Assembly: GCA_008632985.1 (NCBI GenBank) | Contig: QPGO01000013.1 | Span: forward strand, 558,001 to 622,000 | DNA from: Psammoneis japonica | Lineage: Eukaryota | Reading direction: 5' to 3' | DNA length: 64,000 nucleotides | Shown: piece by piece, positions 1 to 61,616 of the stretch | Layout: every line of letters begins with the position of its first letter | Numbering within the stretch: position 1 is the stretch's first letter | The notes under the pieces: generated by a model | Told to the model about the DNA's origin: nothing | Seen by the model: the letters and a program-made list of their open reading frames with translations, nothing else | Databases searched by the model: none | Translations under genes and position numbers: made by a program

Positions 1-2845
1 CATGCTGCTCCAAACCTGTGATCTTGGTTGGCTTGTGACGGGAACTTTCAGCACTTGGTTTGCTGTCTGGGACCCCATGCTCTTGGACCTTGCTCATCAT
101 CTCTGACCCTTCTTCCTTGCTCATCTTGGCCCGTGTTGACCTGCAAACTTGGAACAAGTGCTTGAGACAAGGGTCCAATCCCATGTGATGTCCCTCCATT
201 GCCAACTGGACACATGCACAGTGCACCCTCAATCCAATGAGTTTTTTCTCTTTGCAAAACACCATGTCTCCACTGACTGCAGGAGGAAACCAATCATTGA
301 TCAGTTGGTTTTCCAACACCCTGTCATGTTTTTCCAGATGAACTGCATCTGTCATTGTTTGCTCATCCCTGATGTTGAATGGCTCCCACACATGTGGTGG
401 CAGAGAGCACACACAAAATTCTTGGGAATCTGCAAGTCTTGTCTCCTGGCTTGCACCCAATCACTGTGGTGCAAGGCCGATGCTGCCAGGTGTGCAGCTG
501 CTCCACCACTTTCTGTTTGCTGAAACTGAAGATCAAAGCATCTCTGTCCAGGTGTTCATCAAAATGGATGCATCTGTTTCTCACAAATGTTTCCAAAAAA
601 TGCATCTCACCAGTGCTGTTGAAAGTCTTGCCATCTCACAGCAAAATGAAAATTGAATTTTTGATGGCCACAGCATGGCCCACTTTTGTCAAGCTCATGG
701 TGTGAATGGAGTGGCATGAAACTTGCCATGCACTCTCTGTGCAACCACTGCACTGGCTCAGCAGGCCTGTGCTTGTGCGCCAAAGCAAACCTTGGATCAC
801 CCATGTCACTGTGCATCTCTGTGCATGCATTGTCATCCACAATCACCTGTTGCAAAGTGTTTGTTGTGTGATGCCACATGCATTTCTTCACTTTGTCCAT
901 TTTCAAAAGATTTTTGTGTCAAGACAAGAAAAAAAACATGGTGAACAAGGCTTTCTGATTGTGCCAGGTTTTCCAGCTCAGGCAATTGCAGGCATTGGGA
1001 ACAGCACCCTGGCAACTCTGCCACAGTTTGTTTTTTGATGTTGTTCATCACTCTCCAGTGACAACTTGGCATTGTTGTTCTCTGTTGTGTTTCTTTTGCA
1101 GTCCAGCTGCATTTTGCAATTGTGGTTTTGTTGCCAGAGGGGCAGCAGTCATGATTTTTGCCAAACTCAAAATTTTGGTGGGGGGGCAGCAGCCACACCA
1201 TTTGCTTGTTTGAAAAATGTGGTGTCTCAATTTTCATGATTGAGGTGCGTTGTTTGTGTGTTCTGCATTTTGTGCAATGAATGACATTGAACATTCAAAA
1301 CTGTGCTTTTTTGTGTCAAATGTTGCTCAAATGGTGCATGAAATTTTGATCATCATTCTTCATTGTGTCATTTAATTTCCATTGAATTTGTGGTTGAATG
1401 AAATGCACTGTTGCCAAAATTGGTGACCCACAATTTGTCATCACCCTTGGTGACAAAAGGAGAAACAACATCATCAAATGGTTTGGAAACAAATTCTTTG
1501 TTGTCCAGGTGTGCTGGCACTCTGAAACATCATTGGCAGCTGGCCAAATGGCAGTGTCATGAGAAAGATGTGGCTCTCACACTTGTGCCACTGCACGATT
1601 GGATCTCAGTGGCCAGGGATTGTGTTGCAAGTCCACAAGACAAATGTGGCATTGGAGTGAGATCCCGTTGCAACCATTTCAACAGGAGGAGGGGCAAAGG
1701 TGGCTGGAAGAGGCAATGGCATCACCTGATTCTTTGGATTCTCTTGTTTGCAGCTGTTTGCCATGAGCATCTGTCAACTCATTGCCTGAAACACCACAAA
1801 TGCATTGAGAAAAGGAGAGTTTGCAGAGCAAACAAGCTCTGAGGTGATGTTAAAGACCAATTGGGAGGAAACATTTGCCGCAAATGGGGCAATCATTTCC
1901 TGCGGCAAAGGAAGGCATCATTGTTCATGCTGCAAACAGAGTGAGATGGAGATGTGTGGGAAGCAAAAATGAACAAAATGTGAGCCATGTGGCAAAAGCA
2001 ACACATGGCAGGTGACAAGATTGTTTTGGATGCAAGATCATTCCATGAATTAACACGCAAGATTGGTTGTCTTCACGCTGGTCTGCCGGGCTTGCACCAA
2101 GCAATTGGCAATTTAAGGCAAATCTGACTGGTCACAATGATGGAAACTTTGTCATGCTGGTGTGCATCTTAGATTTGTGCATGACCAGATGCTTGTTGCA
2201 TTTGTGATGGTTGCTTTGTTGTTTGATGCACATGGCACCCGCACAGCTGTGCTTTGTGCAACACATTGCTGCACTCTCAATGACAGACATTTTGTCATGC
2301 CAGAGTGCTCATCTTGGATTTGCATGACCAGATGCCATGAGCAACCACTTCCTGTTCTGAAACCAGAGCAGCTGAGAACATGCTTGTGTGATGGGCAGGT
2401 GCAGTTCTTTGAGGGGCAGCCAATTTCTTGTTTGCACTGAACAAAACACAGAGGAGCCACAAAAGATGCAGGAGGTCACACCCAGATGGCAAAATGGGCT
2501 TGAGTCAACATTGTGGCAAACAGAGCTGCTGGGCCATTGGCAGGGGCAAAAAAAGGAACAGGCAACATCTTTCAAACACCTGTGCTGGTCTCAAATTCTG
2601 CACTGACAACAGGAATCAAAGGCCTTTCACTCTGTTGCTGCCACAAAAAATGAGTGCTGGACCCACCCTCACTTGTTTGTGGTGGGGCAATGTGTTTCAA
2701 CTGACAGCCTTGCAGTCCGGCAGCTGGCCTCTGTGATGGTGGAGCAGTCACTTGCAGCAGAGAGAGAGGGATTGAATGGTTCATTCCAGAGAGCAGTTGA
2801 CGCCACCACCTGAATGAAAGAGATTGATGCAATCGCTTGTGATTT
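1..2845. other. TpA- and CpG-depleted, CA/TG-rich block (heavily mutated repeat-like DNA, family unidentified; runs off the window start)
   Basis: By-eye scan finds only 5 TpA in about 2.85 kb (1373, 1851, 2051, 2114 TTAA; 2170 TTAG) and few CpG. ORFs are Cys/His-rich and essentially lack Tyr. Confidence 0.85.
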
Positions 2846-3188
2846 GTAAACCAAGCGAGTTTGGATCCACAATGAGTTCCTTTGCAAGGAGTCAAATCAG
2901 GTGAATTCAATCGTCTTCCCGGCATCCTCCTCTCGCTAGAGAGAGTAGCTACTCTACTCTAGCAGTGTCTCCTTACAAAGTCCTGCAGTGCCAGGCTAGG
3001 AAAGGCGGTATATCAGTTTGAATCGATGTGGACTGCACAATAGTAGCAACATTAAAGCGACAGGTAAATGGTAATAATTAACATGAACTGCAAGTAAATG
3101 TATTGTGCATACATCACACCAATAATTAACTTCTCTCAAAGCCGGGCGCACAAGCTCTTTTCGTATCGACAGCGACCCGGCCTTCTGC

Positions 3189-6100
3189 CTAAGAAACCTC
3201 GCCGGTCGCAGACACACCCGTGACAACATCCTCAGCCTCGACACTGTCGGCTTCGTCCATTGCATCACTGAAAGCCTCAACTGGTTCATCTTCCATGCTT
3301 TGAGCACGTTCTAAACCTTCCTCAACTGCCGCTTCTTGATCCTTTTCTAGGCGGGCAGCCTCATCTAGACGATCCTCGACATCATAAAAGGCCACGCGCA
3401 ACGTGATGATCGTCATGGCACAAATAGCCATCCCCAACAGGAAACCAAATATTTCAGACATAGAGTCAAATCCATTAATGCAAGTGGCTGTCGAGCAACC
3501 AGCAACAACGAACGAACGGATGAGATGTGATGAAAAATAGTACGAGAATAGCCATCGAAGTACGTACTGCTATAGGCAATTCCAGTGTATATTGGGTTGA
3601 TTTTGTCGCAATTCATTGCCCGTGCAAGTTCGTACAAGCCGTCAACATACGCATTGTATTCTTCTTCAAGAAGATCTAAGGTTGAAAACACGTAATCTGT
3701 GTTGTTGCAGTCCACAAGCTCACGGTCAACATTTCTCAGGTCAACAATAAGGTCGTGAATCCCAATGATGACGGTTTCTATAGCTTTGAAAGCATCGAAC
3801 AGAATCTCAGGCTTGATATCTTTGTCACAACCCTGTGTCGACACAGTATCAAAAGGGGAAACTCGAATTGAGATGACAAGGTTCTGGCAGGACAAAGAAT
3901 GAGACTCTTGATTCGTACTTACGCGAACGTAATAGTTAATAAACTCGTCAAACGGCGGCTCCATATCTTCAATAATTCTAAGAACTTGGTTGTCCGGAGT
4001 GTCATAACAGAAATCAGCCGCGAGCGTTGCTCCAGTCGTTGCGATCGCTGACATTAAGTAAGCAATAAAGATGACAAAAATATACAACGGAATCGCAATT
4101 TTGCTGGCGCAGTCGTTGAATAATCTTGGAGTCTGCCTCTTCCAAGCTAAATACACACCAAACATAAAGATGATCGTCATTACATCGACCAGACAAACAA
4201 AGGCAATGGCAATAGGGAACAAAACTGAAGTGCTGATATCGTCCACCGTCTCTTCGACGCTCAAAATATCTTCATTCAGATTTGCCAGTGATCTGTTCAT
4301 TCTTATCGCTTCTGGCAAAAAGAAAACACTATCGTCGAGTGTGCGATTAATGTCAATCAAGTAACCGGTTCCATTTCCTTTGAACGCGTCGGTAATGTTG
4401 AGACCTGTCACATTGCTTAGGGCATCACCCGTATTGTTGCAATTGTCGACAAGAGCATTGATGAAAAGGATTCTTGCTTCTGTAGTCTGGTTCGATTGGA
4501 TAATAAAATCATGACAAGCCTTGTTGGCTGTTCCGATGAGGCTGCGGAGTTCCTAAACAAGGCAACAAAGTGTAAGAAAAGGGCGATGTGAGATTCATCG
4601 TCGATTCGTGGTGTGCATGCGCCAACACAAGTCACGCCTTACCGGCAAGCTTTGATCGGTTGACTCCAAAGTGTCGTAAATACCCTTGAATCCTAAACCA
4701 ATGAGCAGTCCAGAAAGGACGAGAAGAATAAAGCCAGCAACCAACACCGTAATGCGGATGCGTTTAAGCCTTGTTTCCACGCCAGGATTGCAGTTGCACT
4801 GCAATCGCTTGTACCACGGCTTGGTCTCTTCTTGTGCTTGAGGAAGATCATCAACGTCGTTTTCGGCAAGGTCTCCCGACTTGGATACATCAGCGGGAGA
4901 GTCGGTGTTCTTCGGGATATCTCCGGCAAACCAGATTAGTCTCTTTGATAACTTGAAGTAGAGTAGAAGACAAGCCCTATCGAGAACAACAAACCAAATC
5001 AACAACTGAGCACGAAGAAATCTCAGACACAACAATACGGCCAGACCAAAAAGAGAACCTACCAAACGAGCCAAAAGATCGCCATAACGACAAAGGAAGC
5101 CAAGAGACCAACGAGGTAGTCATTCTGTTTGTCTTCATCCCCAGAAGCAATGAGGTCAAACAAATCGTTGGTCTTTCCAAAACGGATGCCATTGTGGTTC
5201 CTTCGGATGGCTACCGAGTCAGAGAACGTCCTGGGCTTGAAATCAGGTGGAGGATCGGGGAATAGAATGCTTTCACCAGCAATGATGCTGTTGTGGACGC
5301 CCGTGTCTAAAATGACAACGTCATCGGGAAAGTCTGCAGCGGATATATTCATGGTCGGATCCAGAGCTAGAAAGATCCGTTTCCCCTGGTCGCACACATG
5401 ATCAACCTCAAACATGTTTACTGGAAGTTTCCATCTACCTTCTGTCAAGTTTCCAAACAAGTAGTAGTTGAGTCTTGAATGGAGAATATCAGTAAGAATG
5501 GAGGATCCCTGGGCTCCGCCGAGCGTCACGGATCCCTCCGCAATCTGCCAGAGGGCCTGCATCTGCCAAAAGCTGCCGTCTTCGGGAGGACCACCCCTAT
5601 GCACATCGTCCAAGTACTTGAAGATACGGTTCATGGCGTAGTTCGGGTTTGTCTGATTAGACCAGCAAGAGTACTTTCGGCTCACGCCGACCGACTCGAA
5701 TTCGTAGCCCGAACAGGAGTTTGTAGGGTCGTAGTTTGCAACCCAGCATTTTCCCCACACAGCCATAACAGCACCACCTCTAGGGAGTGCGGCTTTTTCC
5801 TTAGCCATATCGAGCGTCATGCCTTTGAGAGGCTTCGTGGTGTTGCACACTTCATCGTCAAAGTAGAAAATGCTTAGCTCCTCCAGCGCCTTCTTGGCTT
5901 CAGCGTCACACTGCTCCTTGAGTTCTTCAGTATCACCAGAGCACTTGCTAACTTCAGCAATCAATATCTCATCTGGGTTCTGGGCAGCCCAGTCAACCAT
6001 TTCCTTCATAGAGTCCTTGAAGAGGTAAGGAGCAATCACGCCTCCGTGATGCATCTGCAGACCGTCAGACTCTGTCAAGTACGGGCGCATATCGAATGCA

Positions 6101-6348
6101 CGAGCTCCGCATTCGATCTGTTCGGTGACGGTTCCAATCTGTGTCTTGGCCCAGGCAATTATCAGATTGTCGGGATCATCTTGGTTCGCATAGATATGGT
6201 CGTCACCGAGATATCCCATGGCTGTATCGTGTGTCATGATGAAGGGGACAGCATTGAGAGGAGTGTCGCCGGGGACAGGCTGTCCTGAGACTACCATACT
6301 GCCTCCTGAGAGCATCGACAATGCTAGGAGGCTTACTAGCGTTGTCAT
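3189..6348 (-). CDS. Multi-exon protein: signal peptide + PI-PLC X-domain-like phosphodiesterase fused to a multi-pass (tweety-like) membrane region
   Basis: FIMTHD...WAKTQ...EQIECGARAFDMRP...HHG motifs. GT-AG introns at 5062-4977 and 4642-4553 join ORF 5059..6348 in frame to 4595..5074 and 3413..4411. Later exons are approximate. Confidence 0.7.
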
Positions 6349-7097
6349 GGCTGAGATTTACACTTGTACTTGTTCACTTCTTTTCTTGTTGTCGCAATGT
6401 ACCATGTACCTGTAAATGCCGTCTGCTCAATTCTTTTTTTGATACACGATTGATCGCGCGGCAAGTTGACAACAGTACGGCAGGGCGACTACTGTTGCCT
6501 ACGTAGAACGTATTGTACTGTACAGTTTGTACTGGTGCATACGAGGCTGATGAGAACCTTGATGAGAACTCTACGTAACGCTGGATCTTTTTAGCGGTCG
6601 ATTTTATTTAGAGCTCGTAAATGTTTAAAAATAACCCGGATTCTTCGTACTAATGATGCGCGCGTACACCAGGTATGAAGGTTCGGGATCTCTCTAGAAT
6701 AACGACCGTAGACATGTCTGCAGCCAGTCAAACGCCAATTGTCGGCCTTTCCTGGAAAGTTGCGGCTTGTCTGCCACAAACAGTCCAATTTTGGCGAAAA
6801 CCAGCGGTTTGTCGAACATGACAACCGCGCCCAATGTGACAATTGGCGTTTGAAGGTTGACAAGTGCAGTTCACACAAAGGTCTGACAGCCCTGATGGGG
6901 GGCAGACACACACACAAGTGTTTGGAGGTGCTCAAATGCATCGCAAAATGACACGGGCGAAGTGCGAGCAAATTGTGGAATCACGAGCTGTTTGAAAAAA
7001 TGCCGCCAAACATCGATCCAGCCTCAAACATCAAATTTGACAGTCAAAATTTCAAATTCAACGGATGTTTGACCTTCATTGATGGACTTGACACAGC

Positions 7098-10000
7098 ATG
7101 GAGCGAAGTGATGTCACCTCGCGAACACCGTTGGCCATGTTGGACGACGCCAACAATGGCGACAATGGCGGTTCCAAATTGACGCCCATGAAACCCCCTG
7201 CCAAAAGAGCAAGAGTGGAGACTCGAGACCTCGCCTTTCTTGCGAGTGAGGAAGTGCAAGCAAAGAGATTGAGCGAGAAGACGTGCTGCAATTGCACCTT
7301 GGGGTCAACTTGCCAAACACATGCTTGTTCATGCTGCAAATGTGACCAACCATGTGCCAACTGTGTTTGCTTCCACAAATGCAAGAACAAGGAAGGACTC
7401 CCAACTTGTGGTGCAAGCGACAGGAACTCGGGTGAGAAGTCACGGAAACTTCCAACCTCCCCGGAAACCAGTCCACTTCAACCGAAAATTTGTCAACTCA
7501 TCAACGGCACCCCTGATGCTGCCAACAAACAAAACAAAAACAAGGCCAACACCAAAGCCAACAAAGAAAACATCGCACCCAATGATCAGAGGTGGACACT
7601 GACGAGGGCAAAACCGACGAGGAGGTCACTGCCACCACAAGGGACAGTGAGCGGTTGGAGGACAGATCGGGCTTGGAGGGAGCTGTCATTCCATCAATTG
7701 ATGACACCAATGCTGCACCCAATGACTTCAATTCAGAGAGGCAGAATGGATCATCTGCAAGTCATGTGGCAAAACATGTTGTCTGAGCAACGGCACTGAA
7801 CTGGATGGTGGAACATTGGACGACAAAACGTGGCAAGAGCACTGGCACCGGCTGATGCCCCACCCATCACAACGATGCAACGCACCAAATGGATCAGTTG
7901 GCAAATGATTCGTGACAATGTTGGCAGAGCTGCTTGATGGTGTCATGAGACGGAAGTGGAACTCGGAGAGGTTCATGGCATGTCAAACAGTCATTTCACA
8001 GTGAGACCGCAACGCAAAAGGAGCGAAAGAAATCAGAACCCTGCTCAGCATGCGCATGGACAATTGGGATGCGGGAAAGCACAAAATGCTGGTCCAGTCA
8101 ATGGAACGGCTGCTTGAAGCAAACCCAAAGACCAAACAGAGGGAGGAGACACCTGAGCAATGCGCCAAGACAATCAACAGAATGGCACTCCAAGGGAACC
8201 TGTGAGGAGTGGTTGGGTGCATTTCAGAACGTGAAAAAGGTGGAATTCTCTCACCAGATGATGTCGATGAAAAGACCAACAACACAGTGTTCAAGGTGCT
8301 TCAGAAGAAACATCCAGATTCAAGAATTCCGGACGAAGACCACTTTCACAAATTTGACGAAACACTGGAGCTTCAGGATGTCATTGTCACCGACGGTGCG
8401 ATCAAGACCGTCATTCGCAGACTGTCCGGAAGTGCAGGACTTGGCGGATCCGATGCCAACGCAGTGTCAGAATGGCTTCTCCGCCACACAAAAGCCAGTG
8501 GATTTCTTGGAGAAGCGTTGTGCATGTTCGCGAACTGACCAGCAAACAAATCGCCCCCATGGGCTGCCTGCCGTGCAATCATGGCGTGAAACGACTCATC
8601 ACGCTAGATGAAAACCTGGGCACATGCCCGGTCGGTGTGGGAGAGGTGTGGCAATGCGCCACCGCCAAAGCCATTCTCCTTGTTGCCAGAGCAGAGGCCA
8701 AAGAGGCTTGTGGGACAGACCAGCCATGCGCTGGACTGGAAGCAGGCATCGAAGGTGCCATCCATGTGATGAACATGCTCTGGGAACAAAACAAATTCGA
8801 AGACGACTGCGGATTTCTTTTCGTTGATGCCTCCAATGGGTTCAACAAAGAGAACAGGATTCCAATGTTGTGCAACACAAGGCACCTCTGGCCATCCGGT
8901 GCAAGGTTCACCTTCAACAGCCACAAGCATTGGAGCATCTTGGTCATCCGTGGTGACTTTGGAACTGCCTTCATCCTGCTCAGCAAAGAAGGTGTCACGC
9001 AGGGCAACCCACTTGACATGGCAGCATGTGGACTGGGCCTTCTTCCACCAGCCCGGGAGATGAATGACCGTTTCAAAGATGCGTTCACCCCTTGGTGTGC
9101 CAACGACTCTGCAGCAGCCGGGAACTTCGACATCCTCTGGGATTTTTTCTTGACGCTCCGAGCCAAAGGCCCCAAGCATGGATGCCACCCCACCGACAAC
9201 TCCAAAAACGTCCCAGTGGTGCCAGAACGCAACCTGGAAAATGCTGGAGCATGCTTTGGAGACCTCGGCTTCACTGTCAAATCTGGCAGCCGTTGCCTCG
9301 GAGGCTTTGTTGGAGAGACGGATGCACGTGACCGGTGGCCAACGGAAAAAGCCAAGTTGTGGACCTCGGTCGTCCAAGGACTTGCCAAAATCGTGATTAC
9401 CACCCCCAGACCACCTGTGCCAGTCTGCAGAAGTCCCTGCAACACCAGTGGCAACATGTCCAGCGTGCAGCAAAGGACTGTGGCAGTTCATTTGTGGAGG
9501 TGGAACACGCGACACAGTGCAACTTCCTGCCAGCGCTAATTGGCGAGACCTTGGCAGATGATGACCCAAGACCAGCCCCATCTGCCCCACCAATCAAATT
9601 CTCGGGACTGTCCATCCCTCATCCAATGGAGTCTGCAGCTCAAAACTTTCAAGCAAGTGCCTTCACGTGCTCCCACGTGATCGACTCACTGCGCGGCCGC
9701 TCTCAATTCTCCTCCGCAGTCCACAAGGACACCATGCGTGAAGTGAGACAGGCAGCAGCTGAACGGAAAGCCAAGGTGCACGAGGAGACCCTCAAATCAA
9801 TCCTCAGGACTCTGCCCGACCTCAAAGCCAGAGCTGTCAAGCGCAGCACCAAGACAGGCACATGTTTGTCAGCGCACCCTTCAACACTGAACGGCGCCAA
9901 ACTCTCATGCCAAGAGTTCCGGGATGTGCTCTTCTTTCGGCATGGCAGCACTCCATCGGATCTCCCAGAGCACTGTGATGGATGCAGATGCGAGTTCTCC

Positions 10001-10657
10001 ATGAACCACGCCCTTCAGTGCAAGAAGGGCAGCCTGGTCATCTCATGACATGATGAAGTCAAGGACAACCCAGGTGATCTAATCGGCAAGGCCTACAAAC
10101 CTTCCCACGTGCACAACGAACCTCTCATCAACCCCATTGGTTGCATCTTGGGAAGTCCAAGCACTGCCAACAGCTCCCCAGGCAACACTGACTCCAACAA
10201 GTCCAAAGATGGCGATCGTGGAGACCTTTTCGGCATGAGATTTTGGGATGGAAAGACAGACATGGTGACGGATGTTCGAATCCCTGACACGGATGCGAAG
10301 TCACACCTGTCCAAAACACCAGAAGAAGTCCTGGCACAACACGAACGTGAAAAAAAGTGCAAGCACCTCAAGCCCTGTCTTGAACAATGCCGTCATTTCA
10401 CCCCTTTTGCAGTGTCGTGCGACGGGCCACTTGGCAAAGAAGCCAAAGCGATGCTCCGCAAGATCGCGTCGAGACTGTCGGACAAATGGCAAAAGCCACA
10501 TTCGGAAGCATGCGGCTGCGTCAATGTGAGAATGAGCATCACCACAGTCCGAGCGACTCACCATTGCCTCAGGGGATCACACATTCCCACATCACAGACA
10601 AGCTCCAGGTGACCCCAGTGGGAAGATGGTGCAGGTCTGTCTCTCTGCAGACACTGA
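7098..10657 (+). mobile_element. Inactivated non-LTR retrotransposon, single ORF with RT + C-terminal restriction-like endonuclease (CRE-like)
   Basis: RT motifs: PVGVGEVW, AGIEGAIH, FVDASNGFN, EGVTQGNPL, WCAND (=WYADD), GSRCLGGFVG (=YLG). RLE region: CDGC...HALQCKKG, RGDL, DVRIPDTDAKS, FTPFAVSCDG, CLRGS. Broken by frameshifts and TGA stops. 3' UTR extends to about 10930. Confidence 0.9.
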
Positions 10658-10965
10658 AAAGGCCCACTCCGGACGGAATGCCCTCACCCAGACAAGATGC
10701 TGACCCACTGCCAAACAACACTGCAGATGCTCTAGCGACAAGATGATGACAACACCCTGACACACCAACTCCGGCACCAGAATGTTTTCAAAATTTAACA
10801 CGCACAGCAATCGAAACTTGGGCGTGACAACCACCCCCCACTCGCACGACTGCATTAACTGCACAATGCCCATTTTATCACTGCAGTTTGTTGGACATTT
10901 TAAATGACCACACATGACCATTTTTTAGATCTCCGGTTGTGTTTCATGTCAAGCAATGAATGCGG

Positions 10966-11510
10966 ACCAGAGAAAAGCGCAAGTGCCTCAAGCCCTGCCT
11001 TGAGCAACGTCACCAATTTGCTCCCTTTGTCACATCATTCGATGGACTGTTTGGCAAGGAAGCCAAGGCAGTGCTGTGCAGAATCTCTGCCAAACTGGCT
11101 GAGAAATGGCAAAAGCCATGTTCAGAGGTGTGCGGCCATGTCAATGCAAGAATGAGTGTCGCTGTGGTGTGGGCAACTCACCGTTGCCTCAGGGGATCAT
11201 GCATCCCTTTGTCCCCCAGATCAGCTCCAGATGTCCCCAATGGAAGGTTGGTGCTGGTCCATCCCTGTGCAAGCACTGGATGACCCCACATGGGCCAGAC
11301 CACTCATGCGGAAAGTGCACCAACCTGCTGCTCACAGAGACCATCAACATCATGCCAAGAAGACAACAAAAACCTGGCAACATGCTGGTTGCGGCACCAG
11401 AATCCATTCAAATCTCACGCGCACAGCTCACAAAAAACTGCGCCGACAACCGCCCCTTGCTTGCATGACTGCATTGACTGTGCAATGTCCACTTTTTCAT
11501 GTCAAACAAT
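10966..11510 (+). mobile_element. Second, 5'-truncated, diverged copy of the same retrotransposon family (RLE C-terminus + 3' UTR)
   Basis: REKRKCLKPCLEQRHQFAPFVTSFDGLFGKEAK...CLRGS aligns to 10346-10657 at an offset of about 620. 3' UTR segment 11453-11490 matches 10837-10872. Confidence 0.85.
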
Positions 11511-12327
11511 TCACACTCTGTCCATCCACACAACTGTTGAAGCATCTTCTGTGTGACCCAGAAAGAAGATCCCCAACCCGAACTTGCGAGCCTGCTGCAT
11601 GACCAAAACCCCCCTTCAGCAAAAAAAATGAACTTGCGCAGCTTGAAACTGGCTGCTGACCAAACAAATTAGCACCTCATGGACTGACCTGTTGACAGAG
11701 GCAAAAAGCCATTGTTCTCAATGCACTGTGTTGTTGGGAAGCCCTCATGTGTGGAGCACCTTTGCCCCATCAAAATTGCCGTCAAGGTCTTCGGGGGGGG
11801 GGGTTCCTCCCGCAGAAAGCATGCATTCAGGGGGGTTCACTGCACAGAATCAGTGCCAAGACTCTGTGGCACCAGTGAACCATGATGTGGCTCGGGAGGA
11901 TGTGTGCACAGAAATGCACACAGAGCTTGGCTGGGTCAGAAGGCAAAATGCCAACTTTGTTCTGCAGATGCAGCAGTGAGGGGCACTTTAAAAATCAAAT
12001 GAGCTGCCAAAATAAAGCACGCCTCTGTGCCAATGGATGTGACATTGCCGCAGATGTCTTGTTGTCTTTTGCATTTTTGCCGATGGTCTGCAGGGCAGTT
12101 TTTGTTGCACCATGAAGGCAAGGAACCACTTGATGGCTTGGGGCACCAACTGCACACAATGTGCATGATTTCACACAGCGAACCACTGCATGGTTCATGG
12201 TGGGAGTGGGGCCAGCCAGCAACTGTTTTGCATTGTGTGCAGACAGCATGCACCAGCAATGTGGGGTGCCACATGAGGATGTTGATGAGAACACGCCATG
12301 GATCTTTTGGTTCTCACTTTCACAATG

Positions 12328-12363
12328 CCCCCCCCCNNNNNNNNNCCCCCCCCCCCCCCCCCC
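12328..12363. repeat. Poly-C run containing a 9-N assembly gap (12337-12345)
   Basis: Directly visible. Confidence 0.95.
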
Positions 12364-14952
12364 TGTCCACACCCCTCCACTGTTGAAAGTGAAGATGAAC
12401 ATCAGAGCTCACAACATTGCTGGAAATTGACAAGGCATGCACTGCCAGTCAGGTGCAATTGCTCCCCCCAGCTCTTCCACCATGCAGCTCTTGCAGCAAC
12501 ATTGTTTGTTGGTGGTGGAGCTTCCCTGGGACCCCAGATGTGTGTTGTCACCCCAGGTGAAATGAGGCACACACATCCTTCTCCTGGGATCAGATTGTGT
12601 TGTCCTCTTTGCCCATCTTCCATTGACATGCATTTTGTGCAACAGCAAATCTGATGTGAATTTTGCCCCAATTTGTCATTGCATCTTTCACCAGATTTGT
12701 TCATTTTTGAAGATGGTCCACAATCTGTGTGCACTGGAGGAGGGTGTGCACAAGAACACAGCAATTTTGACATGGCCAGTGCAAAGCTCATGGACAACTG
12801 TGCATGATTGTTTCACATTTGAGAAAGCATTTTGCTGTGTCTTTCATTGCACCTGACTGCTTTTGAAAGAATGCCCATGATCTTCATCTCATGTGAAGAC
12901 ACCCCATGCAAAGAGAGTGGCAGAACTCTCTGGCTCTGATTTTTTTTTAAGAAAAAAAAACAAGAGAAATCTGTCTCATGCATGTGTTTGTTGTGCATCA
13001 CTGGCTGTCTCAAAGATTGGCTGATTTGCTGACGTGCATGCACAAGAGTCTTGAGTTGTTGATCACATGCACTGGTGGCAACACAGCAGTGCCATCAAAG
13101 TTTGACAGAAGTGGGTCAATTTGAGTCATTTGAAAGGCAGAGGCAACAACGCAGTGTCTTCAAAATTTCAGCTCCGGTTCAAGAAAAATGAGTCACACTT
13201 GCACCTGGCTGAGCTTCTCAATTGTCACCACACACAATCACAAAGCTGGGCAATGTTGCTCTTCTGTTCACACCAAAATTTGGCAAGTTGGTGCACTTCC
13301 CCATCAAAGCAAAAGCATCATCCACAGTGACTTTAAAGCAGTTTAAAAAGCCAGCTTGTCTTGAGAGGTGAGCATTGTGAAAAGCCCCACTGCACAGCCA
13401 AAGGGAGAGAAAAGGACACAAATGCCATGAGTGGAAAAGCTTGACAAAAGGCCTCACAAGCCAAAAAATCAATGTTGCTCCAAAAACACCATTGGGCTGA
13501 TTGCAGTCTTGTTTGCACTCTTGCTCCCACATCCCAGACATTCATTGGTTCCCAAATGCAGACAAGGTCATGGCAACTGCATGGCACTGTTTCTGGTGTG
13601 TGGTTTGCAATGCAGAGCATGAAAAAATGTCTTTGTTTTTTGGCTCAATTTTCTTGCATGGGTTTGGTGCCAAGTGTGCATCACATGCACAAGTGCACAG
13701 AAAACCTGATGATTTGTCATCCAAAAGTTTCTCACCTGGCATGAAAACATGCTCCCGCTTCAAGAGGCACACCTCTTTTGCTGTGTTGGCTCTCCCGTGA
13801 ATTGAAGAGTGCATCAAAGAAACAAGTGTGATTCCAGATCAGACGCATGACAACAAATTGAGTGGCAAGTGCAGGCACAGCTCTTGTGTGAAAACTGTTG
13901 CATGCCAGCAAAATGGGGTGGCTGTGGCAAAGTCAACTCAGGATCTTTGCTGTCTGCCAACAAGGTTGCTCAGCATTGTGACTCCACATGACCAGGATGT
14001 TGCACCCATTGCACCAACATGTCCTCTCTAAAGTGGTGGAAGATTGGGGTCATGTCCTGTGGTCTCCTTGCAACAACAGCTGGTTCCAGACTTTTCTGCC
14101 AGACCTTTGGAGCTTGCCAAACAACTTTTAGTTGCTGTGGCTGTTGAAAGAAAGACTTTCTTCTCTCTGGGATTAAAAAAGTGGTTTTTGATGACAAAGT
14201 GCTGCTCACCCACTGTTTGTCACCTGGCCTCTCAGGCACATTGAACAAAAAACAAACAAGAAGTGATGGCTGGACAAACAACAACAACAAGCACTGACCT
14301 CTGTGGCTTTTGATGGGAGTCCAAAAGAGCTGCCCTTCTTTTGGTGACACCTTTGCATTCTCTCCTTTGGTGCACCCTCAAAGAAACAACCAAAAATCAT
14401 CCCTGCTCCTCACCAAACCAACTGAGTTTCACTCCCAGATGTCTCGCAGCAAATCTTTCTCATCTTGGAGTGAGGTTTCTGGGTCTTTTGGAAGCAAGGG
14501 ATGCAACAATTTAAATTGAAAATGCTCTGTTCTGGAGAGAGTTGTGGATTTTTGTTTTCTTGCCAACAAAAGGGAGAGGACACACACACAAACACGCTGA
14601 CAAATTTTCTTGGCATCATCACAGAATTGTGCTTTTCTGCTGTTTGAGCTTGCTGCCATTGTGTTTTTGTGCTTGCGCAACTCAAAACACCACAGTGGCA
14701 CAGGTTGCTGTGCAAGTGTCTTGCGGTGCATGTTTTGTTCTTCTTGTTTTGGGCTGCAGCTGCAAGAAGTTCTGGTTGGCAGCATCAAAAAGCAAAGATT
14801 TTTTTGGTGCTAGAGAGCAGCTTTGTGAATGATTTGTTTTGCACTTTTGCATTTTCTCACATTCAAAAAGTGCTGCACAAGCAGTGTGAGAAGGGTTGAC
14901 AAAGAAGCAAAAATGGCACATTTGTGTCTAGCGGTGAGTTGAAAAAAGAGAG

Positions 14953-14978
14953 GAGAGAGAGAGAGAGAGAGAGAGAGA
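14953..14978. repeat. (GA)n microsatellite
   Basis: Directly visible, about 13 units. Confidence 0.9.
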
Positions 14979-15602
14979 CGTGTTTTTTCACAAACAACTG
15001 TGCAGTGCATGAGCAGCAAGCAGCAACAGACTCTTTTGACTGCTGGTGCTGGGAGAAACAATGCCCAATGTTTTGCCTTTCCAGCATCTGCCCAGGGAGG
15101 AAAAGACAGGAAGAGACACAGGGGGCAAGGAGGAGTCAGAAGGGTCAGCTGGCTGTTGCCATCAGCCATGATTGGAGAAGAAGCAACAAAAACCAGGCCA
15201 GAGAAGCAGCAAGGTAGTGTCAGCAAGCAATGGGTGCCCCCAGAAGGCAGGCATCATAAACATGGAGAAGTGGAGAAGGCACCTTGGTGTTGGTTGAAAG
15301 TGGACCATGTGTCAATTTGATTGTGCCCAGTGTGTTTTGAGGTGGTCTGTGCTTCTCTAGACCTGCCGGGTACAAGTAGATCAGGCCAAACTGCATGGCC
15401 AGATTCTGCGAGATGGGACCTGCTATCAGGTTCAGAATGACAGTCGGTCGAAAATTGACTCCGTTCGGTGACAGCATGACTTAGTGTTCTGACTAACAAT
15501 TAGATTGAAAAACTACTAAGATTACTCAGAACACACACAATACAACGGAGCTAGCTAAAGATGTCCTCGGATCGCCCCATGATAGCAAGGTCCACCACAT
15601 GC

Positions 15603-17792
15603 TCAGTGTCCGTTAGCAATTGCGGCGTTTTCAAACACGGGACGGGAGTTAAGGTCGGGAACCGATCCGGCCTTCTTGTAAAACTCAAAAAGGGCCTTAC
15701 CCTTGCTGACCACGTTGTCCTTGCTGAAACCAAAGTGCTTAAAGACTGCGCTACCGCTTCCAGAGAGACCAAAGCTCGTCATACCAATTTGAGCATGGCT
15801 AAACCTATGCCATCCGTGGACAGCTCCAGCCTCCACCGACAAGGTCGGAACGTTGCCTGGCAAGACAGACCGCTGGTAGGACTCGCTTTGCTCCAGAAAG
15901 ATCTCCTGACAGGGCATAGACACAACTTGTGTTGCAATCCCTGAGGCAGATAGCTCCTTTGCTGCTTCTACGCAAATACCCATTTCGCTTCCTGTCCCAA
16001 TCAGAACAAGCGCGGGATCGGACACTTCCACAGCCACGTATGCTCCATGGCTTGCCTTTTCAATCGAAGACGCTTCGATCGCGGGAACACCACTTCGTGA
16101 GCAGCAAATGACCGACGGAGTCGTGGTTTTGGTCAGTGCCATTTTATAGGACGCTGCCGTCTCATTCGAGTCAGCTGGACGGAAAACGTTGATGTTCGGC
16201 ATGGACCTTAAGCTCTCAAGTGTTTCAATCGGCTGATGAGTCGGCCCGTCCTCGCCAAGTCCAATGGAATCATGCGTCATGATGTAAATCACACCAAACC
16301 TCGAGAGCGCCGAGAGACGAATAGCTCCCGCGCAATACCCAACAAAGGTAAGAAAGGTAGCACAGAACGGACGGATACCACCGTACGCAAAGAGCCCATT
16401 GCAAACGGCTGCCATGCCGTGCTCACGGACACCAAACCGGAGGTAGCGACCATCCGGGCTGTCCTTCTGAAAGTCACCAGAGCACGCCAATGCCGTCAAG
16501 TTGGAAGGAGTCAAGTCAGCGCTACCACCAATCAGCTCTGGTAGGTCTGGCGCCAAGGCGTTGAGGCAAAAGTTACTAAACTTTCGAGTCGCCTGGTCCT
16601 TGTCTTTGCCAATCTCAAAGGTAGGTAGTTTTGAAAAGATGCCTTCAGGAAGTTCGTAGTTGAAGCGACGGGTAATCTCTGCCGCCTTGTCAGGATGCGC
16701 CGAAGCGTAATTCGAGTACAGAGCATCCCACTCCTTCTTCTTTGCTTCGCCCTTGGCGGTGCTCTCGGCGTACACATCCTTGACTTCTTGAGAAACGTCA
16801 AAGCTCTTGTCGGGATCAAGTCCGTAAGCTTCCTTGGTTCCACGCAAATCATCCACTCCAAGAGGTGCTCCGTGAGCACCTGCCGTGTTGGCCTTCCCTG
16901 GCGATCCATACCCAATCACAGTGGACACCTTGATGATGGAAGGCTTGTCTGTCACAGCCTTGGCAGCCTCCACAGCGGCACGGAGATCCTTGATGCCATC
17001 TGCGACATCGCCCACTGTCTGAACATGCCATCCGTAGGCTTCGTACCTCTTGGCAACATCTTCCGAGAAACTAAGATTGGTTTCGCCATCAATCGTGATC
17101 TTGTTGTCGTCGTACAACACAATGAGCTTTCCAAGGCCCAAGTGGCCGGCGAGAGAACTCGCCTCGGACGACACGCCCTCCTGCAAACATCCATCTCCAC
17201 AAATCACATAGGTGTAGTGATCAAAGACCTTGTACTCGGGAGTGTTATAGGTGGCTGAAAACTGCTTTTCAGCAATCGCCAAGCCGACAGCGTTCGAAAT
17301 ACCCTGTCCGAGAGGACCGGTGCAGACCTCAACGCCTGGAACATGAGCAATTGAAAGCTTAGCAACATCGTTTCTTGCAAAATTCACAAGCATAACAACA
17401 AATAGCCCCTTCAGAAACACGTACCATCCGTCGCAAACACTTCTGGATGTCCCGGAGTCTTACTTCCAAGCTTACGAAACTGCTTTGAGATCCTCAATCG
17501 TCACGTCATACCCACTCAAATGAAGCATGGTGTACTGAAGAGCACACGCATGGCCGTTGCTCAGGACGAACCGATCGCGATTCATCCACGTGGGGTCGGA
17601 CGCGCTGTAGTTCATGACTTGGTTCCATAGCAAGTGCGCCAAGGGAGCACATCCCATGGGAGCACCGGGATGTCCAGAGTTGGCAGCTTGAGGCTGATCG
17701 GCAGATACAGCACGGATCGTGTTGATGCACTTGAGCTCGAGATCCGAGCCGTCATACGTCTTGGGCTTTTTGGATGGCGGGGCAGATGTCAT
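15603..17792 (-). CDS. TKT: Transketolase, probably cytosolic
   Basis: [52 protein letters not shown]. Intron 17424-17336. One extra base near 17485 breaks the frame in this assembly. No targeting peptide. Confidence 0.95.
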
Positions 17793-30778: not shown

Positions 30779-31713
30779 TTAGTAGAAAAGAAGCTCTAAT
30801 CCATATGCCTGGTCTAGACTACGGGTAGGGGGTGCATCGATGAAAAAAGTGTGAATGAGAGCCTAGACTCCACCAGCAATTCCTCCTGCCCTGAGACTCA
30901 AAATTGTAGATTCATTCTTACGGTACGCTCTAGAGATGATTTCGCAAGCATGACGGTGAAGAAAATCAATAGAACTGAGTGATCTCTCGTTTCTCCGCAA
31001 CTCGCATAGGTCTTGGTTATAGTCTGGATTGGTCGTGAAGGAGACAAGGAAACGAGAAGAAACCGCTCCGATACTCTAGAGAGAGGATACTGGATGTTGT
31101 GTCCAACTATTGTTTTAAAAACGCATTGTTCGGGCATCCGCACTTCTCAGCTACGGTAGAGAGCCCAATGTGTTTCAGCCATTTTGGTTCGTTCCCCGCA
31201 AGAAGAGAATTCAAGTGCAGGAAGATGATGCAGTGAACAGATTACCATTTGATTGTATGGGAGACAATGAGGCTGGCTACTTACTGGAGGGAAGGAAAGA
31301 AAAAGTGACGAGAAAGGAAACACTCAGACAATGTCGTGTTGTACCTACAGTACGGTACTGTAGTCGTAACTCGAGACATTAGTTACTGTATTATTGAGTA
31401 GGCATTCCCGAGAACTTGGGGCAATATTCAATTACACTACTTTATCGAGTCCAGCAAGAAAAAGACATTTACGAAGGCACCGGCAATTGTTGACAGGCGA
31501 AACGAGAAGTCATATGTCATTCAACATTAAGACTAAAAGACCATACTAATCCCGAAAAGCCAAAAGAACAACGACAAATGTTTATCTCAGTAGGATTCTA
31601 CAAGTATAATACCAGTTCTGCGGTGGTTCACAAAAACCCATGATTCAACCCTGTCCGATTTTTCGCTTCACTTTTTCTCCGTCCACGTGCTCACAATTTC
31701 ACAATCTGTAATC

Positions 31714-32448
31714 ATGAAACTCCCTCTCGCATTGATTTCCCTTGTTGCCTTCTCTGTTTCCGCAGAGGCTCTCGACGCTGTTGCGACTGGCGGTGGGCTG
31801 AGGGGGCTATCCTACTACCACGAGAAAGAAGAAGGCGAGGACAAGGTCAAGCCTGGCAAACCAGAAAAGCCGGGACGTCCGCTCAAGCCCGGAAAGCCGG
31901 GAAGGCCCTTGAAGCCTGGAAAACCTGGAGGAAAGCCCGATAAGCCGGGACGTCCGTACAAGCCAGGAAAGCCCGACAAGCCGGGACGTCCTGAACACCC
32001 TGGCAAGCCCGCAGAGAAACCTGAAAAGCCAGGACGCCCTGAACATCCTGGTAGGCCAGGCAAGCCTGACAAGCCCGGACGCCCCGAGCGCCCTGGAAAG
32101 CCTGCATACCCTGGCAAGCCTGTGGAGAAACCTGAGAAACCTGAGAAACCGGGACGTCCTGAACACCCTGGCAAGCCTTCTGAGAAACCTGACAAGCCAG
32201 GACGCCCAGAACATCCTGGCAAACCCGGCAAACCTGACAAGCCAGGACGCCCTGAGCGCCCAGGAAAGCCCGCATACCCTGGCAAGCCTGCTGAGAAACC
32301 TGAGAAACCGGGACGTCCTGAACACCCTGGCAAGCCTGCTGAGAAACCTGAGAAACCGGGACGTCCTGAACATCCTGGCAGGCCGGACAAGCCTGATAAG
32401 CCCGGACGCCCCGAGCGCCCAGAAAAGCCTGCGCATTACTATCCGTAG
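31714..32448 (+). CDS. Secreted Pro/Lys/Gly/Glu-rich repetitive protein
   Basis: Signal peptide MKLPLALISLVAFSVSAEA, an LRGL motif, then about 200 aa of XXP triplets (KPGKPEKPGRPEHP). Third-position variation between repeats supports the + frame. Confidence 0.85.
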   Translation: MKLPLALISLVAFSVSAEALDAVATGGGLRGLSYYHEKEEGEDKVKPGKPEKPGRPLKPGKPGRPLKPGKPGGKPDKPGRPYKPGKPDKPGRPEHPGKPAEKPEKPGRPEHPGRPGKPDKPGRPERPGKPAYPGKPVEKPEKPEKPGRPEHPGKPSEKPDKPGRPEHPGKPGKPDKPGRPERPGKPAYPGKPAEKPEKPGRPEHPGKPAEKPEKPGRPEHPGRPDKPDKPGRPERPEKPAHYYP

Positions 32449-32672: not shown

Positions 32673-32902
32673 TTCACACACATCATGTCTCTCAAATTTC
32701 ATGATCAAGGAAGATTACACTCAAGAGCAAGCACCAGAATGCTGGTAAACAATCTTCCGCAAAGGACTGCTAAGCGTAGGTTACGTGTTCACACACATCA
32801 TGTCTCTCAAATTTCATGATCAAGGAAGATTACACTCAAGAGCAAGCACCAGAATGCTGGTAAACAATCTTCCGCAAAGGACTGCTAAGCGTAGGTTACG
32901 TG
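32673..32902. repeat. Perfect tandem duplication, 2 x 115 bp
   Basis: ttcacacacatcatg...gtaggttacgtg at 32673-32787 and 32788-32902. Confidence 0.9.
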
Positions 32903-33131
32903 TCGAACTTTCGCAACCACACGCCGTTGATTTGTTGGCAAAACTCTTGCTTTGGGAAGCCGAGAACCGATGGACGAGACTTGGCTATCAGTAAAGCTAA
33001 TGGGTGTTTCAATCCTTCTTTTGCACATATTCCGACTTGATCTGGCTGGAATGGTAATTTCCTACCAGTCTGGGCAACTGGTGGAGGGTCTACCCGAAGG
33101 ACGCTACTCTCTAACCAGTACTGTACATCAC

Positions 33132-50027: not shown

Positions 50028-53000
50028 ATGGAGGCGCAAGGCGAAACAGCATCAAAAAATATACTGCTTGATTTGTGGGCGTTGCTCTTGTGGCTCGGAA
50101 CGTTCCAGCAGTTCTCGGCCGAGTTTGTTCGTGACGAGAATGTGAGCGAAAGCGAAATGAACACGATACTAAACGACCCGGCGTTTGTAGAGTAAGTTAA
50201 AATGAATACTACTTTCTATATTGGGTATGTGGAACTCGAGAAATCTCATGCCGTGTCCGTTTTGTATTGAAAACCTTGAAGGGCCCTGGTGAACATTGCC
50301 GAAGAAGTTTGTCAAAAGAGCTCAAGCGATCTTGGTGATCAGAGTACTATCATGTGGCAAAAGGTTCATCGTATTATCTCATCGATAGCCTCGGCTCCGG
50401 CTCTGGAGAACGCCAGCTTCGACACCGAACCAAGCAACGAAAGAAAATTTGCCCTCATGTGCTGCTTGCTTGGTTTTGCGGTAAACAAACGCTGCCCAGA
50501 GCAAGGCACGTATGTTGGAAAAATAAGAGGAATGAGCCTTACAGCACAACGGAGGATCATGACTATTATCGGAAATGTAGGTGTCGTTGCCCACCAGGAC
50601 GCCAAAACATTGAAACCAGAGTTACCATCCGAGGGGAGTGCAGTGCGTCGAAAGCACGACGAAGCTTTTGAATCAAAAGACGCTGAACAGTCTGATACAA
50701 CACCTTCCAAGAAGCACAAAGACAGCGAAGATACCTCAAGTGTTGAAGATGCATATACACCGGATACAGTAGACTCGGCCGCAGAACGAGCAATGGAGCG
50801 GCTTCGAGAGCAAAACACGGATCTCCAGAAGAGGCTACAATCCAGCGAACAACGCGAAGAAGAACTCGGAGAAAAATTGCAATCGGTAGAAGCTGAGCAC
50901 AAAAAGTCAATGATAAAGGTCGAGTCTGCTGCTCTGCGAAGGGAAGAAGAAATTCGAGAGGAGCTTATGGCAGAGGTGGCAACTTTGAAGGCAAAAGTCG
51001 AAGATCTAACCTCACGCGAAGAGGACGAGACTAGTTCGCAAGAGAAGCTACAAGCTCTTCAAGATGAAATCGAGGTTCTGCAGCACAACAAAGTAGCGCT
51101 TGTACAGGCGGAAGAAAAGATCCGAAACTATCAAGATCGTTTGGAGCAGAATGAGAACATCAAGGCCGCTCTCAAACGCGAAGAGGAAGCCCACGCCAAG
51201 TCTGTCGAGGATTATTTGCGCGTTGAGAATGAGCTCAAAGTCCTACAACCTTTGAAAAAACAGCTTGAAGAGTACAAAGCTAGGGCAGTTGATGCAGAGG
51301 TCAAACTTGAAGAATGTCGAGATGACTTGAAACGAATGGAAAGTATGAGCCAAACGCTTGATAGTGCTAAGAAAGATCTCGAGAAAGGAGCCAGAATTCG
51401 CGAAGAGGAAGTCGAGGAATTGAGACATCGTTTGTGTCAGGAAGGAGAAAGAGAAGAAGGTGGTCAAGGCATTGGTGAAGGCATGAGGTGAGTTCTAGTT
51501 GATTTTTTTCTCATTACGAATTTCCGTTATTGTTGCTAAAATTATGCATTTGTTTGACATGCAGCGAGCTCAACCCTGTTCTGAAAGAAGAACTGATGCG
51601 TTTACGCAACGAAAACGACCAGCTTCGAGCCTTTGCAGCGAAGAGAGAAGATGACGCGGTTCAGAAACTTGAAGAGAAGCTGGATGACAAGGAGCGACTC
51701 TCCGTTCGGTACAAGGAGCGATTTCTAGATACCAAGTCTCAACTTGAACAAACTCAGACTAAACTCACCGATGCTATCCAGCGTGAAGAACAACTGAAAC
51801 TTGACGTTGCTGACTGGACCAAGAAATTCAACGACACAACGGAGCTCGCAACTGAATACAAAAGAGAGTTGGATATGACGGTGTCCGTCTTGGAAGAGAC
51901 TCAACCATTGCTCGTTGATGCCAAACTCGAAGTACAGGAGCTACAACAAGAGATTCAAGGTTGGATAGCCACGAATGAAGAAGCGAATCAATCTATTCAG
52001 AACCTAAACGATCTATTGGAAACAACCAAGGCTACTTTGGAAGAACGGGAACAAGATCTTTTGGCTTCGCAGGAAAGAGAGGTTAATCTCATTCGGGATG
52101 TGTCAGAATGGACGGACAAGGCGAATGGAGCAGAGGAACGTGCTAATGATGTACACCAGGAGCTCGAATGTACTCAGGCTATTTTAGAAGAGACCCAACA
52201 CGCTTTACGTAACGCCGAAGAAGAAGTTACGTCCTTGGAAGTGACGGTATCAGACTTGAAGTCGAACGTTGTAACACTTGAAACCACTCTGGCGGAAGAA
52301 ACGAAGCGGAGGGACGATGATGCCAAGGCCGCACGCAAGCTACTAGAAAGAACAGTTCAAGATCTGAAAGAAGTGGCAAGCAAAGAGTTGGAGAAACAAA
52401 AGAAAGAAGGAAGCACCACAATTGAGCATGAGAGAAAACGGTTTGAGAACGAGCTGTCAGACAAGGCCGCAGAGTTCGTTGCTCTTGAAAAGAAATGCGA
52501 ACAGGAAGTGCAGGATGCAAAACAGACTTCGTCCGAGACGATCGCTGCATTGCAGCAGAAAAATGAAAAGGAAATAGCAGCGTTGATCGAAACGCATAAG
52601 AATGACGTGGACAAACTGGCGCAAGAGTCTTCGGACGAACAGGATCGACTTGTACGAAAAGGCCGTGGAATGCTCAGTGACGTCAAACGGGACGCAAAAG
52701 AAAAGCAGCAAGAACTAGAATCTGAAATTCAGGAGTTGGCCGATACGGTTGCTAAATTGAAGGAGAAGAATATCGATGTGGTGCAGAAAGCCAAGGAGAA
52801 GTTCTCTAACTACAAGAAGCAATTACAGGTTGCGGACGGAAAAATAAGCGAGCTCTCGTACGAAAAACAAGAGTTGGAGGACACCGTTAAGCACAAGGAG
52901 CGAGAAATGTTCACTCTGCGGGAAGAAAGCGAAACCTACAGACGTCAACTTGGGAGTCGTTACGGAGCCGACGGAAAGACACAACACCAGCTTGAAGCTC

Positions 53001-61323: not shown

Positions 61324-61616
61324 TGCTTTCAGCGCCAAGTGTAAGCATACAGGTATATTGTAGCTATTCATTTACATATGGGATTGTACTCTACTGGTCT
61401 GTCTTTCACTAGAGAGTGTCATGTCTTGCTACAAACACTTTGGAGCTCATAGGTTCTAATACACGCTGGTCCTAGCATAGGCTCAACCTATGGTCCTCTA
61501 TTACTAGCTACACTCCAGAGAGAGTGCGCCAGAGGAAGAATTTCTACCGGAAGTAAAACTTGGTGTCGAAAGAAAATGAGATGTGTTGTCGTTCATGGTG
61601 TGATGGAGACTATCTA

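Follow-up and report, generated by a model that had tools for sequence, protein, structure and literature searches.

How can one dinucleotide be almost erased from a block of DNA when the genes on either side of that block keep it? This question is raised by a 64,000-nucleotide stretch of the Psammoneis japonica genome (GenBank assembly GCA_008632985.1, contig QPGO01000013.1, positions 558,001 to 622,000 of the forward strand; hereafter the window, with coordinates counted from its first letter), in which a block at 6711-15340 containing a putative R2-like retroelement is nearly devoid of TpA. An initial annotation of the window, made from the sequence alone, had proposed that a process confined to repeats and acting on both DNA strands converts TpA to TpG or CpA by A:T to G:C transitions, in the direction opposite to that of fungal repeat-induced point mutation (RIP). 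Here we report a computational analysis of this locus. We judge it likely, with good confidence, that the block is a cluster of dead mobile elements in which TpA was converted to TpG and CpA, as the end state of the kind of hypermutation of selfish DNA described in the chlorarachniophyte Bigelowiella natans.

Results

TpA is nearly absent from an 8.6-kb block

Dinucleotide counting found 25 TpA in 6711-15340, for an observed/expected ratio (O/E) of 0.05, and none within 6710-8604; the counts in the initial annotation (25 in the block, zero in 6711-8604) were reproduced exactly. The largest TpA-free gap, from 6709 to 8605, is 1896 bp long. In the gene-bearing control region 16000-57500, the mean TpA gap was 24.6 bp and the maximum of 1685 gaps was 231 bp, and by our own arithmetic the probability of a gap of at least 1896 bp at this mean spacing is ~e^-77. 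On the left the block begins abruptly: the last TpA before it are at 6695, 6700 and 6709, and the next is at 8605. Three more TpA-poor blocks, also reported initially, were recovered at 1-2846, 61616-64000 and, more weakly, 58183-59273.

Loss of TpA in 6711-15340 was accompanied by an excess of TpG (n = 854, O/E 1.82) and CpA (n = 970, O/E 1.59) and by a reduced CpG (n = 217, O/E 0.40). The 12 dinucleotides other than TA, TG, CA and CpG were near their window values. Among them AA, AT and TT, which had been described as not lost, gave 1.22, 0.83 and 1.32 against 1.17, 0.89 and 1.17 for the whole window, so that the change is not a general shift in GC content. Ordinary genes at 16000-57000 are already TpA-low (O/E about 0.4-0.8), as are intact relatives of the element (median 0.58); this low level may reflect weak leakage of the process across the genome or plain avoidance of TpA.

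The block contains two copies of a putative R2-like retroelement

The left part of the block, 6710-10660 on the forward strand, holds a near-full-length, hypermutated non-LTR (long terminal repeat) retroelement with a single open reading frame (ORF), delimited by tblastn of homologues, the start of paralogue matches and TpA counts. A protein search with its longest frame (8358-9539) returned 62 longer relatives at no more than 51% identity, several of them with RVT_1, a reverse transcriptase (RT) family. In tblastn, 12 homologues together covered 7275-10654 on the forward strand in three frames, tracing the remains of an ORF of ~1100 amino acids with a Cys-rich N-terminus, an RT and a C-terminal domain. 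This ORF is broken by frameshifts near 8586-8592 and 9401-9410 and by six in-frame stops, all of which are TGA. Contigs of paralogous copies first match at 6710, which sets the span of the element at ~6710-10660, and their summed depth is 500-3500 over 6600-11400, compared with 55-66 in the flanks.

The RT was recognized through homologues only. Homologue P0001 matched RVT_1 at 31 bits against the Pfam cut-off of 29.6, and the element's own broken ORFs gave no RT in Pfam at E ≤ 0.01. When a profile of the family was compared with solved structures, R2 proteins were the sole matches (E = 3.5e-6), in the RT region and at positions 424-572 only. The element is thus assigned, by its RT, as a putative R2-like non-LTR retroelement, the C-terminal domain lying outside the profile/structure match. 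The homologues have a conserved C-terminal Cys/His and RHN...D...K pattern, which we take to resemble the zinc knuckle/restriction-like endonuclease domain of R2. The insertion site is not ribosomal DNA, and no terminal repeats were found for the element by blastn of the window. Protein searches also placed the family in Cyclotella and Thalassiosira.

A second copy, 5'-truncated and represented by its C-terminal part, lies on the forward strand at 10972-11278 and has lost both TpA and CpG. It was identified by blastn (10353-10656 against 10973-11278, 70.6%) and by tblastn, which placed residues 994-1077 of P0001 at 10972-11278. The remainder of the block, 11279-15340, is TpA-free and nearly CpG-free (CpG O/E 0.06-0.2); none of 35 ORFs tested there scored above a Pfam curated cut-off, and it is probably older mobile-element debris. 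More widely, 83 ORFs across 11280-15350 and the three further blocks were compared with Pfam, and none reached the curated cut-off of its family. Matches to DmmA-like_C, Med5 and DUF5545 among these 83 ORFs all fell below curated cut-offs and were treated as chance. This part of the block also contains a (GA)n run near 14950-14980 and a nine-N assembly gap at 12337-12345, inside a G/C homopolymer; contigs built from sequencing reads end at 12336 and 12346, and the gap is probably a homopolymer that reads failed to cross.

Relatives of the element retain TpA and tyrosine

A scan of metagenome contigs yielded 79 loci encoding relatives of the element. All 79 had TpA O/E of 0.20-0.92 (median 0.58), with a single one (0.20) below 0.3. 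Intact family members as free of TpA as the window copy, which the initial annotation had named as an observation that would count against it, were therefore absent from this set, every relative having an O/E of at least 0.20. Tyr filled 553 of 609 cells of the relatives at nine columns where it is invariant or nearly so, with Cys in 14 and His in 5, whereas the window retained Tyr at none of the nine. Polarization by majority rule in four sub-families of relatives revealed no TpA-specific excess of transitions. These comparisons support the view that the loss of TpA is not native to the element family.

The TpA-poorest environmental relatives, L019 (1904 bases), L048 and L069, have TpA O/E of 0.30, 0.20 and 0.32, respectively. 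Of eight conserved Tyr in L019, four have become Cys or His, and its 35 replacements include 7 of the TpA type and none of the CpG type. Only these three of the 79 loci look partly TpA-hypermutated, which suggests that other organisms or populations also have the process at work.

The changes are TpA-directed transitions on both strands

A column counted as conserved Tyr when 8 or more homologues aligned there and Tyr was present in at least 75% of them. The main copy kept none of 12 such residues; six were Cys (TGY), five His (CAY) and one Phe (TTT), a result that bears out the Tyr to Cys or His changes first noticed in the annotation. Other conserved residues in the same copy were retained at 39-93%. 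Taking both copies together, none of 14 Tyr columns was kept, with eight Cys, five His and one other.

The 508 conserved columns carried 141 replacements. A single TpA to TpG/CpA step can account for 37 of them and a single CpG to TpG/CpA step for 29, among which are R>C, R>H and R>stop; other A:T to G:C changes can account for only 4. Under the same rule, the 79 relatives pooled (5873 replacements) gave 2.5% TpA-type, 5.5% CpG-type and 6.0% other A:T to G:C. An excess of TA to TG/CA over other transitions, which the initial annotation had named beforehand as a test, is thus present. A mass balance with the relatives as stand-in for the ancestor agreed with this: in the element, TG and CA gained 57.6 per kb against a loss of 50.8 per kb for TA and CG, and in 10972-15340 the corresponding values were 85.6 and 83.1 per kb.

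Both products occur within one copy, and TG and CA counts in two sub-blocks were 338/439 and 491/490. No strand-coordinated tracts of TG or CA were detected by runs tests in five blocks (z from -1.4 to +1.2), the power of which is limited as about half of the TG and CA pre-existed; with z near zero, sites were apparently resolved singly. The loss is mutational, specific to TpA and on both strands, as the annotation had claimed, and this is supported by the replacements, the mass balance and the products together.

Copies differ from one another and reads reproduce the depletion

An alignment of the two copies in the window has 331 columns, of which 108 differ, 79 of them by transition. Their 45 adjacent double differences include 15 CA<->TG swaps, and at 13 further sites one copy has CG and the other TG or CA. 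One codon at which homologues have Tyr reads His in one copy and Cys in the other. Between the window and paralogue contigs, transitions account for 905 of 1149 difference places; among 40 listed of 1161 paralogue differences, 4 are TG<->CA swaps, and one listed site, 9455, is CA in the window but TA in other copies. As read from these alignments, the pattern is that of copies hit independently.

Contigs from one sequencing run (X1) cover 8100-8481, 10612-11007, 11358-12336 and 12346-14938 with 0-1 differences each. Their depth is 51-70, similar to the 55-66 of the flanking genes, and half-depth alternatives are absent, which is not expected if a modified base were read in one way on one strand and in another way on the other. 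Two further runs (X2 and X3) contain little or none of the stretch.

Depth also bears on the proposed restriction to repeats. The region 6600-11400 is multi-copy. In X1, however, depth over 11358-12336 and 12346-14938 is 51-65, and 12346-14938 is at single-copy depth at a likeness of at least 80% (one run) yet fully TpA-free, so that a multi-copy state cannot explain everything.

CpG decay is separable from TpA loss

CpG is depleted to an O/E of about 0.6 over 7000-10500 and to less than 0.2 over 11500-15000 and the two end blocks, with values that span 0.02-0.6 in total. The element keeps ~72% of expected CpG, compared with 5 TpA of about 140 expected from the TA density of its relatives (<4%). 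If both losses were first-order, TpA would have been lost roughly ten times faster than CpG, and the survival of most CpG where TpA is gone makes the two processes separable. The loss of CpG to TpG and CpA is probably ordinary 5-methylcytosine (5mC) decay.

The TpA that remain share a context. Across the four blocks, 29 of 39 are YTAR (Y, pyrimidine; R, purine), against a background of 17% (p = 7.5e-15). In L019, L048 and L069, RTAY makes up 3/30, 1/24 and 1/39 of TpA sites compared with 27% in the pooled relatives, and YTAR makes up 38-43% compared with 21%. RTAY would thus appear to be lost first and YTAR last, an order that fits an apparent T-A-Y target, as RTAY comprises two T-A-Y sites (one per strand) and YTAR none. 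NTGC is the most and NTGA the least enriched product tetranucleotide, and in the old blocks YTGY+RCAR exceeds YCAY+RTGR; this excess is suggestive only, since CpG decay confounds it and a true ancestor is lacking.

The stretch separating the two element copies (10661-10971) has a small island of six TpA at 10733-10926, five of them YTAR in the forms TTAA, CTAG and TTAG. This island may represent a refractory context rather than unmutated host DNA.

Neighbouring genes and other features of the window

The block is bounded on the right by a transketolase gene on the reverse strand (15603-17459; Pfam and protein search) with ordinary TpA (O/E 0.45-0.6). The ORF begins at position 101 of the Transketolase_N profile, and its first ~100 residues are therefore in an upstream exon or were missed. 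Its best named relatives are from the raphid pennate diatoms Seminavis, Nitzschia, Mayamaea and Fistulifera (65-69% identity), and a second gene of the window has named relatives in Chaetoceros only; both bear out the diatom host that had been supposed. To the left lies an ORF of 432 amino acids on the reverse strand (5059-6357), also with ordinary TpA, the density of which is normal up to 6709.

Two of the other depleted blocks are truncated by the ends of the window. The block at 1-2846 is free of CpG and has 5 TpA, all YTAR, and 19 ORFs without a Pfam match. The block at 61616-64000 is likewise CpG-free, with 3 TpA, all YTAR, and Pfam matches that are all sub-threshold. The short block at 58183-59273 is partly depleted (6 TpA in 1.1 kb; CpG O/E about 0.67). 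It sits between the second and third of three paralogous genes at 55555-61323 with repeated HA (helicase-associated, PF03457) domains. Its origin as a decayed copy of these genes was considered and rejected, as tblastn gave zero matches between 57213 and 59898.

Elsewhere, 50280-53698 on the forward strand carries adjacent ORFs of 403 amino acids (with a weak HOOK match) and 731 amino acids, both of which match single diatom proteins of ~1068 amino acids with PF05622; the pair is probably one Hook-like gene split by an intron or stop. The window also has a perfect 116-bp tandem duplication, with 32673-32788 equal to 32788-32903, and diverged repeats (86-88%) at 31855-32432 lie within an ORF (31594-32448) that has no Pfam match.

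Discussion

The closest known counterpart of this locus is in Bigelowiella natans. In mutation-accumulation lines, two integrated viral regions took 231 of the 302 point mutations of the nuclear genome, at about 6e-7 mutations per site per generation; nearly all of those in the viral regions were A>G or T>C, and every one of these was at TpA (Mettrop et al., bioRxiv 2026, 10.64898/2026.01.13.699255). According to the available text of this preprint, the B. natans genome has 124 TpA-poor, TpG+CpA-rich clusters, RT and DDE domains are over-represented among TpA-poor coding sequences, the target is single-copy, and an ADAT2-like deaminase is proposed as the editor (Mettrop et al.). The initial annotation knew of no earlier description of the phenomenon, and that claim does not stand, since TpA to TpG/CpA hypermutation had been measured in B. 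natans. Restriction to repeats can be kept only as a proposal; the target given in the preprint is single-copy.

The two systems, as far as the preprint text goes, share the dinucleotide target and both products, action on both strands, neighbouring host DNA of normal composition, TpA-poor clusters rich in TpG and CpA, and a direction opposite to the usual G:C to A:T bias. They differ in host, a diatom (Stramenopila) here and a chlorarachniophyte (Rhizaria) there, and in the identified target, a retrotransposon here and a giant-virus/virophage insert there. Depletion reaches O/E 0.02-0.05 here, compared with Rho 0.45 in the B. natans region derived from a nucleocytoplasmic large DNA virus, and a de novo rate was measured in B. 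natans, against a rate relative to CpG decay estimated here from end-state sequence. CpG decay and the YTAR bias of survivors are seen here, and the available preprint text mentions neither; nor does it mention diatoms, CpG or wider sequence context in general (Mettrop et al.). No report of TpA loss in diatom transposons was found in the full-text literature searched, the coverage of which leaves out most subscription journals.

RIP acts on duplicated DNA in ascomycetes, converting CpA to TpA, which raises TpA and lowers GC, and it leaks into flanks. Like RIP, the process seen here is heavy, consists of transitions only and is dinucleotide-specific, with mobile copies hit, genes intact and ORFs inactivated. 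In contrast to RIP, it removes TpA and raises TpG and CpA (TpA O/E 0.05, CpA 1.59), so the opposite direction claimed at the outset holds, and the GC of the element (52.4%) is above that of the left flank (46.6%). Its left edge is sharp, and it extends over both multi-copy DNA (6600-11400) and DNA at single-copy depth (12346-14938). Deamination of 5mC yields the identical products TpG and CpA, and CpG-type changes are present in the blocks, but removal of TpA by CpG decay is impossible.

Because the signature matches that of the B. natans lines, we take the block to be the final outcome of host-directed editing of this kind. Nearly every TpA would have been converted to TpG or CpA by an A:T to G:C transition, site by site and on either strand, most likely in place after insertion. 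The loss of CpG to the same two products would be superimposed, at a rate about ten times lower. The process would be driven by an enzyme, with targets perhaps selected by chromatin state or small RNAs, and its role may be defence against selfish DNA. Our first choice of enzyme, held with a little less than even confidence, is an adenine deaminase of the TadA/ADAT fold. Deamination of this type would yield A>G. TadA and ADAT act on A34, which is always preceded by U33, giving them a built-in T-A motif, and the natural site of bacterial TadA is U-A-C, which would fit the T-A-Y bias. ADARs are metazoan. Restriction by ADAR or APOBEC is strand-biased and incomplete, whereas here TGY and CAY occur in one ORF, with both strands near saturation. 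A preference of ADAR for 5' U is noted in the preprint text (Mettrop et al.).

Several points weigh against this reading as a whole or in part. The spectrum was derived from protein homologues at ~50% identity and one 300-bp paralogue pair, not from a polarized DNA alignment. A mobile element is identifiable in only 4.3 kb of the 8.6 kb, and for the rest its selfish nature is assumed. The T-A-Y preference is relative, as two of the five Tyr to His changes have a 5' pyrimidine, and the asymmetry of products is weak in the young element (14.8 versus 12.5 per kb) and clear in the older blocks only, in which it is confounded by CpG decay. The sharp edge at the 5' end of the element (6709/6710) also fits editing before or during integration. 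Run X1 is possibly the assembly's own data, with the platform not on record, and is not independent proof. Finally, no deaminase or other candidate gene was found in the 64-kb window, where the annotation had likewise seen no causal gene.

The best surviving alternative is that the transition at TpA happens in place but starts on thymine, the T of 5'-TpA being modified (for example to a hydroxymethyl-uracil type, by a TET/JBP-like oxygenase) and then mispairing with G or being mis-repaired, to give T>C. Since TpA is palindromic, A>G after T is the same as T>C before A on the opposite strand, and the data cannot separate the two; the flank bias fits R-T-A just as well. The adenine deaminase put forward among the initial candidates fits the data, but so, equally, does a thymine-directed change. 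In dinoflagellates, hydroxymethyl-uracil is enriched at TpA and TpC. For diatoms no sign of such a base turned up, though no search aimed at it was made. Modified thymines are, however, generally weakly mutagenic, compared with the ~97% conversion seen here, and the B. natans authors found an ADAT2-like candidate, itself only a proposal in the preprint text (Mettrop et al.). We regard a thymine origin as unlikely, though it deserves to be kept in view.

Editing in transit is improbable. By this account, deamination like that by ADAR or APOBEC would strike UA/TA in the RNA and/or first-strand cDNA while the element retrotransposes, so that copies arrive already mutated and the chromosome itself sees no editing. 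Such editing would explain why the TpA-free zone starts exactly where the paralogue match starts (6709/6710), without leakage into the flank, and the differences in product per site between copies are also expected from editing per insertion. It is harder to reconcile with the presence of both products in one copy without strand tracts (the two copies together show 8 Cys and 5 His), and ~97% conversion far exceeds typical editing in a single passage. Equally TpA-free are ~4 kb of non-coding DNA at single-copy depth and three blocks with no recognizable retroelement, and CpG decay in the same blocks grades with apparent age, as it would for resident DNA. In the B. natans lines, moreover, the mutations are described as arising de novo in integrated, single-copy viral DNA (Mettrop et al.).

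It is very improbable that the loss arose without a dedicated system, as a side effect of repair bias or of GC-biased gene conversion between repeats in methylated heterochromatin, such as might come from a T:G glycosylase fixing G:C. The changes do run from A:T to G:C, and CpG decay marks the base chemistry of the region as unlike that of genes; against this, AA, AT and TT are undepleted, and A:T to G:C replacements number 4 of 141 outside TpA compared with 37 at TpA. We know of no dinucleotide specificity in gene conversion bias, nor of a case in which it erased a dinucleotide. Hardly any weight attaches to an artefact at modified bases, whether from sequencing, base-calling or polishing, or to a native composition of the family: the sole run with the sequence may be the assembly's own, of unrecorded platform, but read-built contigs reproduce up to 2.6 kb of TpA-free DNA with 0-1 differences at flank-like depth and without half-depth bubbles, paralogues differ by fixed TG/CA alternatives, the ORF holds matching amino-acid changes, frameshifts and TGA stops, and all 79 relatives, with ordinary TpA and Tyr kept, already contradict a native origin.

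If the block is the end state of in-place, host-directed editing, a broader proposal can be made, quite tentatively. Diatoms and chlorarachniophytes may share an ancient DNA-editing defence, possibly one found across the SAR group (Stramenopila, Alveolata and Rhizaria), which would convert TpA to TpG/CpA in chromatin-marked selfish DNA, singly and on either strand, with a T-A-Y preference, at ~10x the rate of methyl-CpG decay and to saturation, and whose editor would be a DNA adenine deaminase derived from the tRNA A34 deaminase or a member of an unrecognized deaminase family.

The phenomenon itself has already been described in B. natans; relative to the available account, the additions here are the diatom host, the retrotransposon target, an almost complete loss of TpA, a rate gauged against CpG decay and the flank preference. 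The first report of a mutator that targets selfish DNA with A:T to G:C changes dates only from 2026 and concerns one chlorarachniophyte; a saturated state in a diatom would show that the process is no curiosity of a single lineage. The features of the locus place constraints on the enzyme, namely the T-A-Y/YTAR flank bias, site-by-site action on both strands, and a rate roughly ten-fold over CpG decay. Annotation is affected as well: TAA and TAG stops and Tyr codons all disappear from such regions, so that gene and transposon finders will mis-read them. A natural DNA adenine deaminase, if true, would be a counterpart of laboratory adenine base editors and of interest to base editing. Diatoms are ecologically dominant and genetically tractable, and candidate editors would thus be open to knockout.

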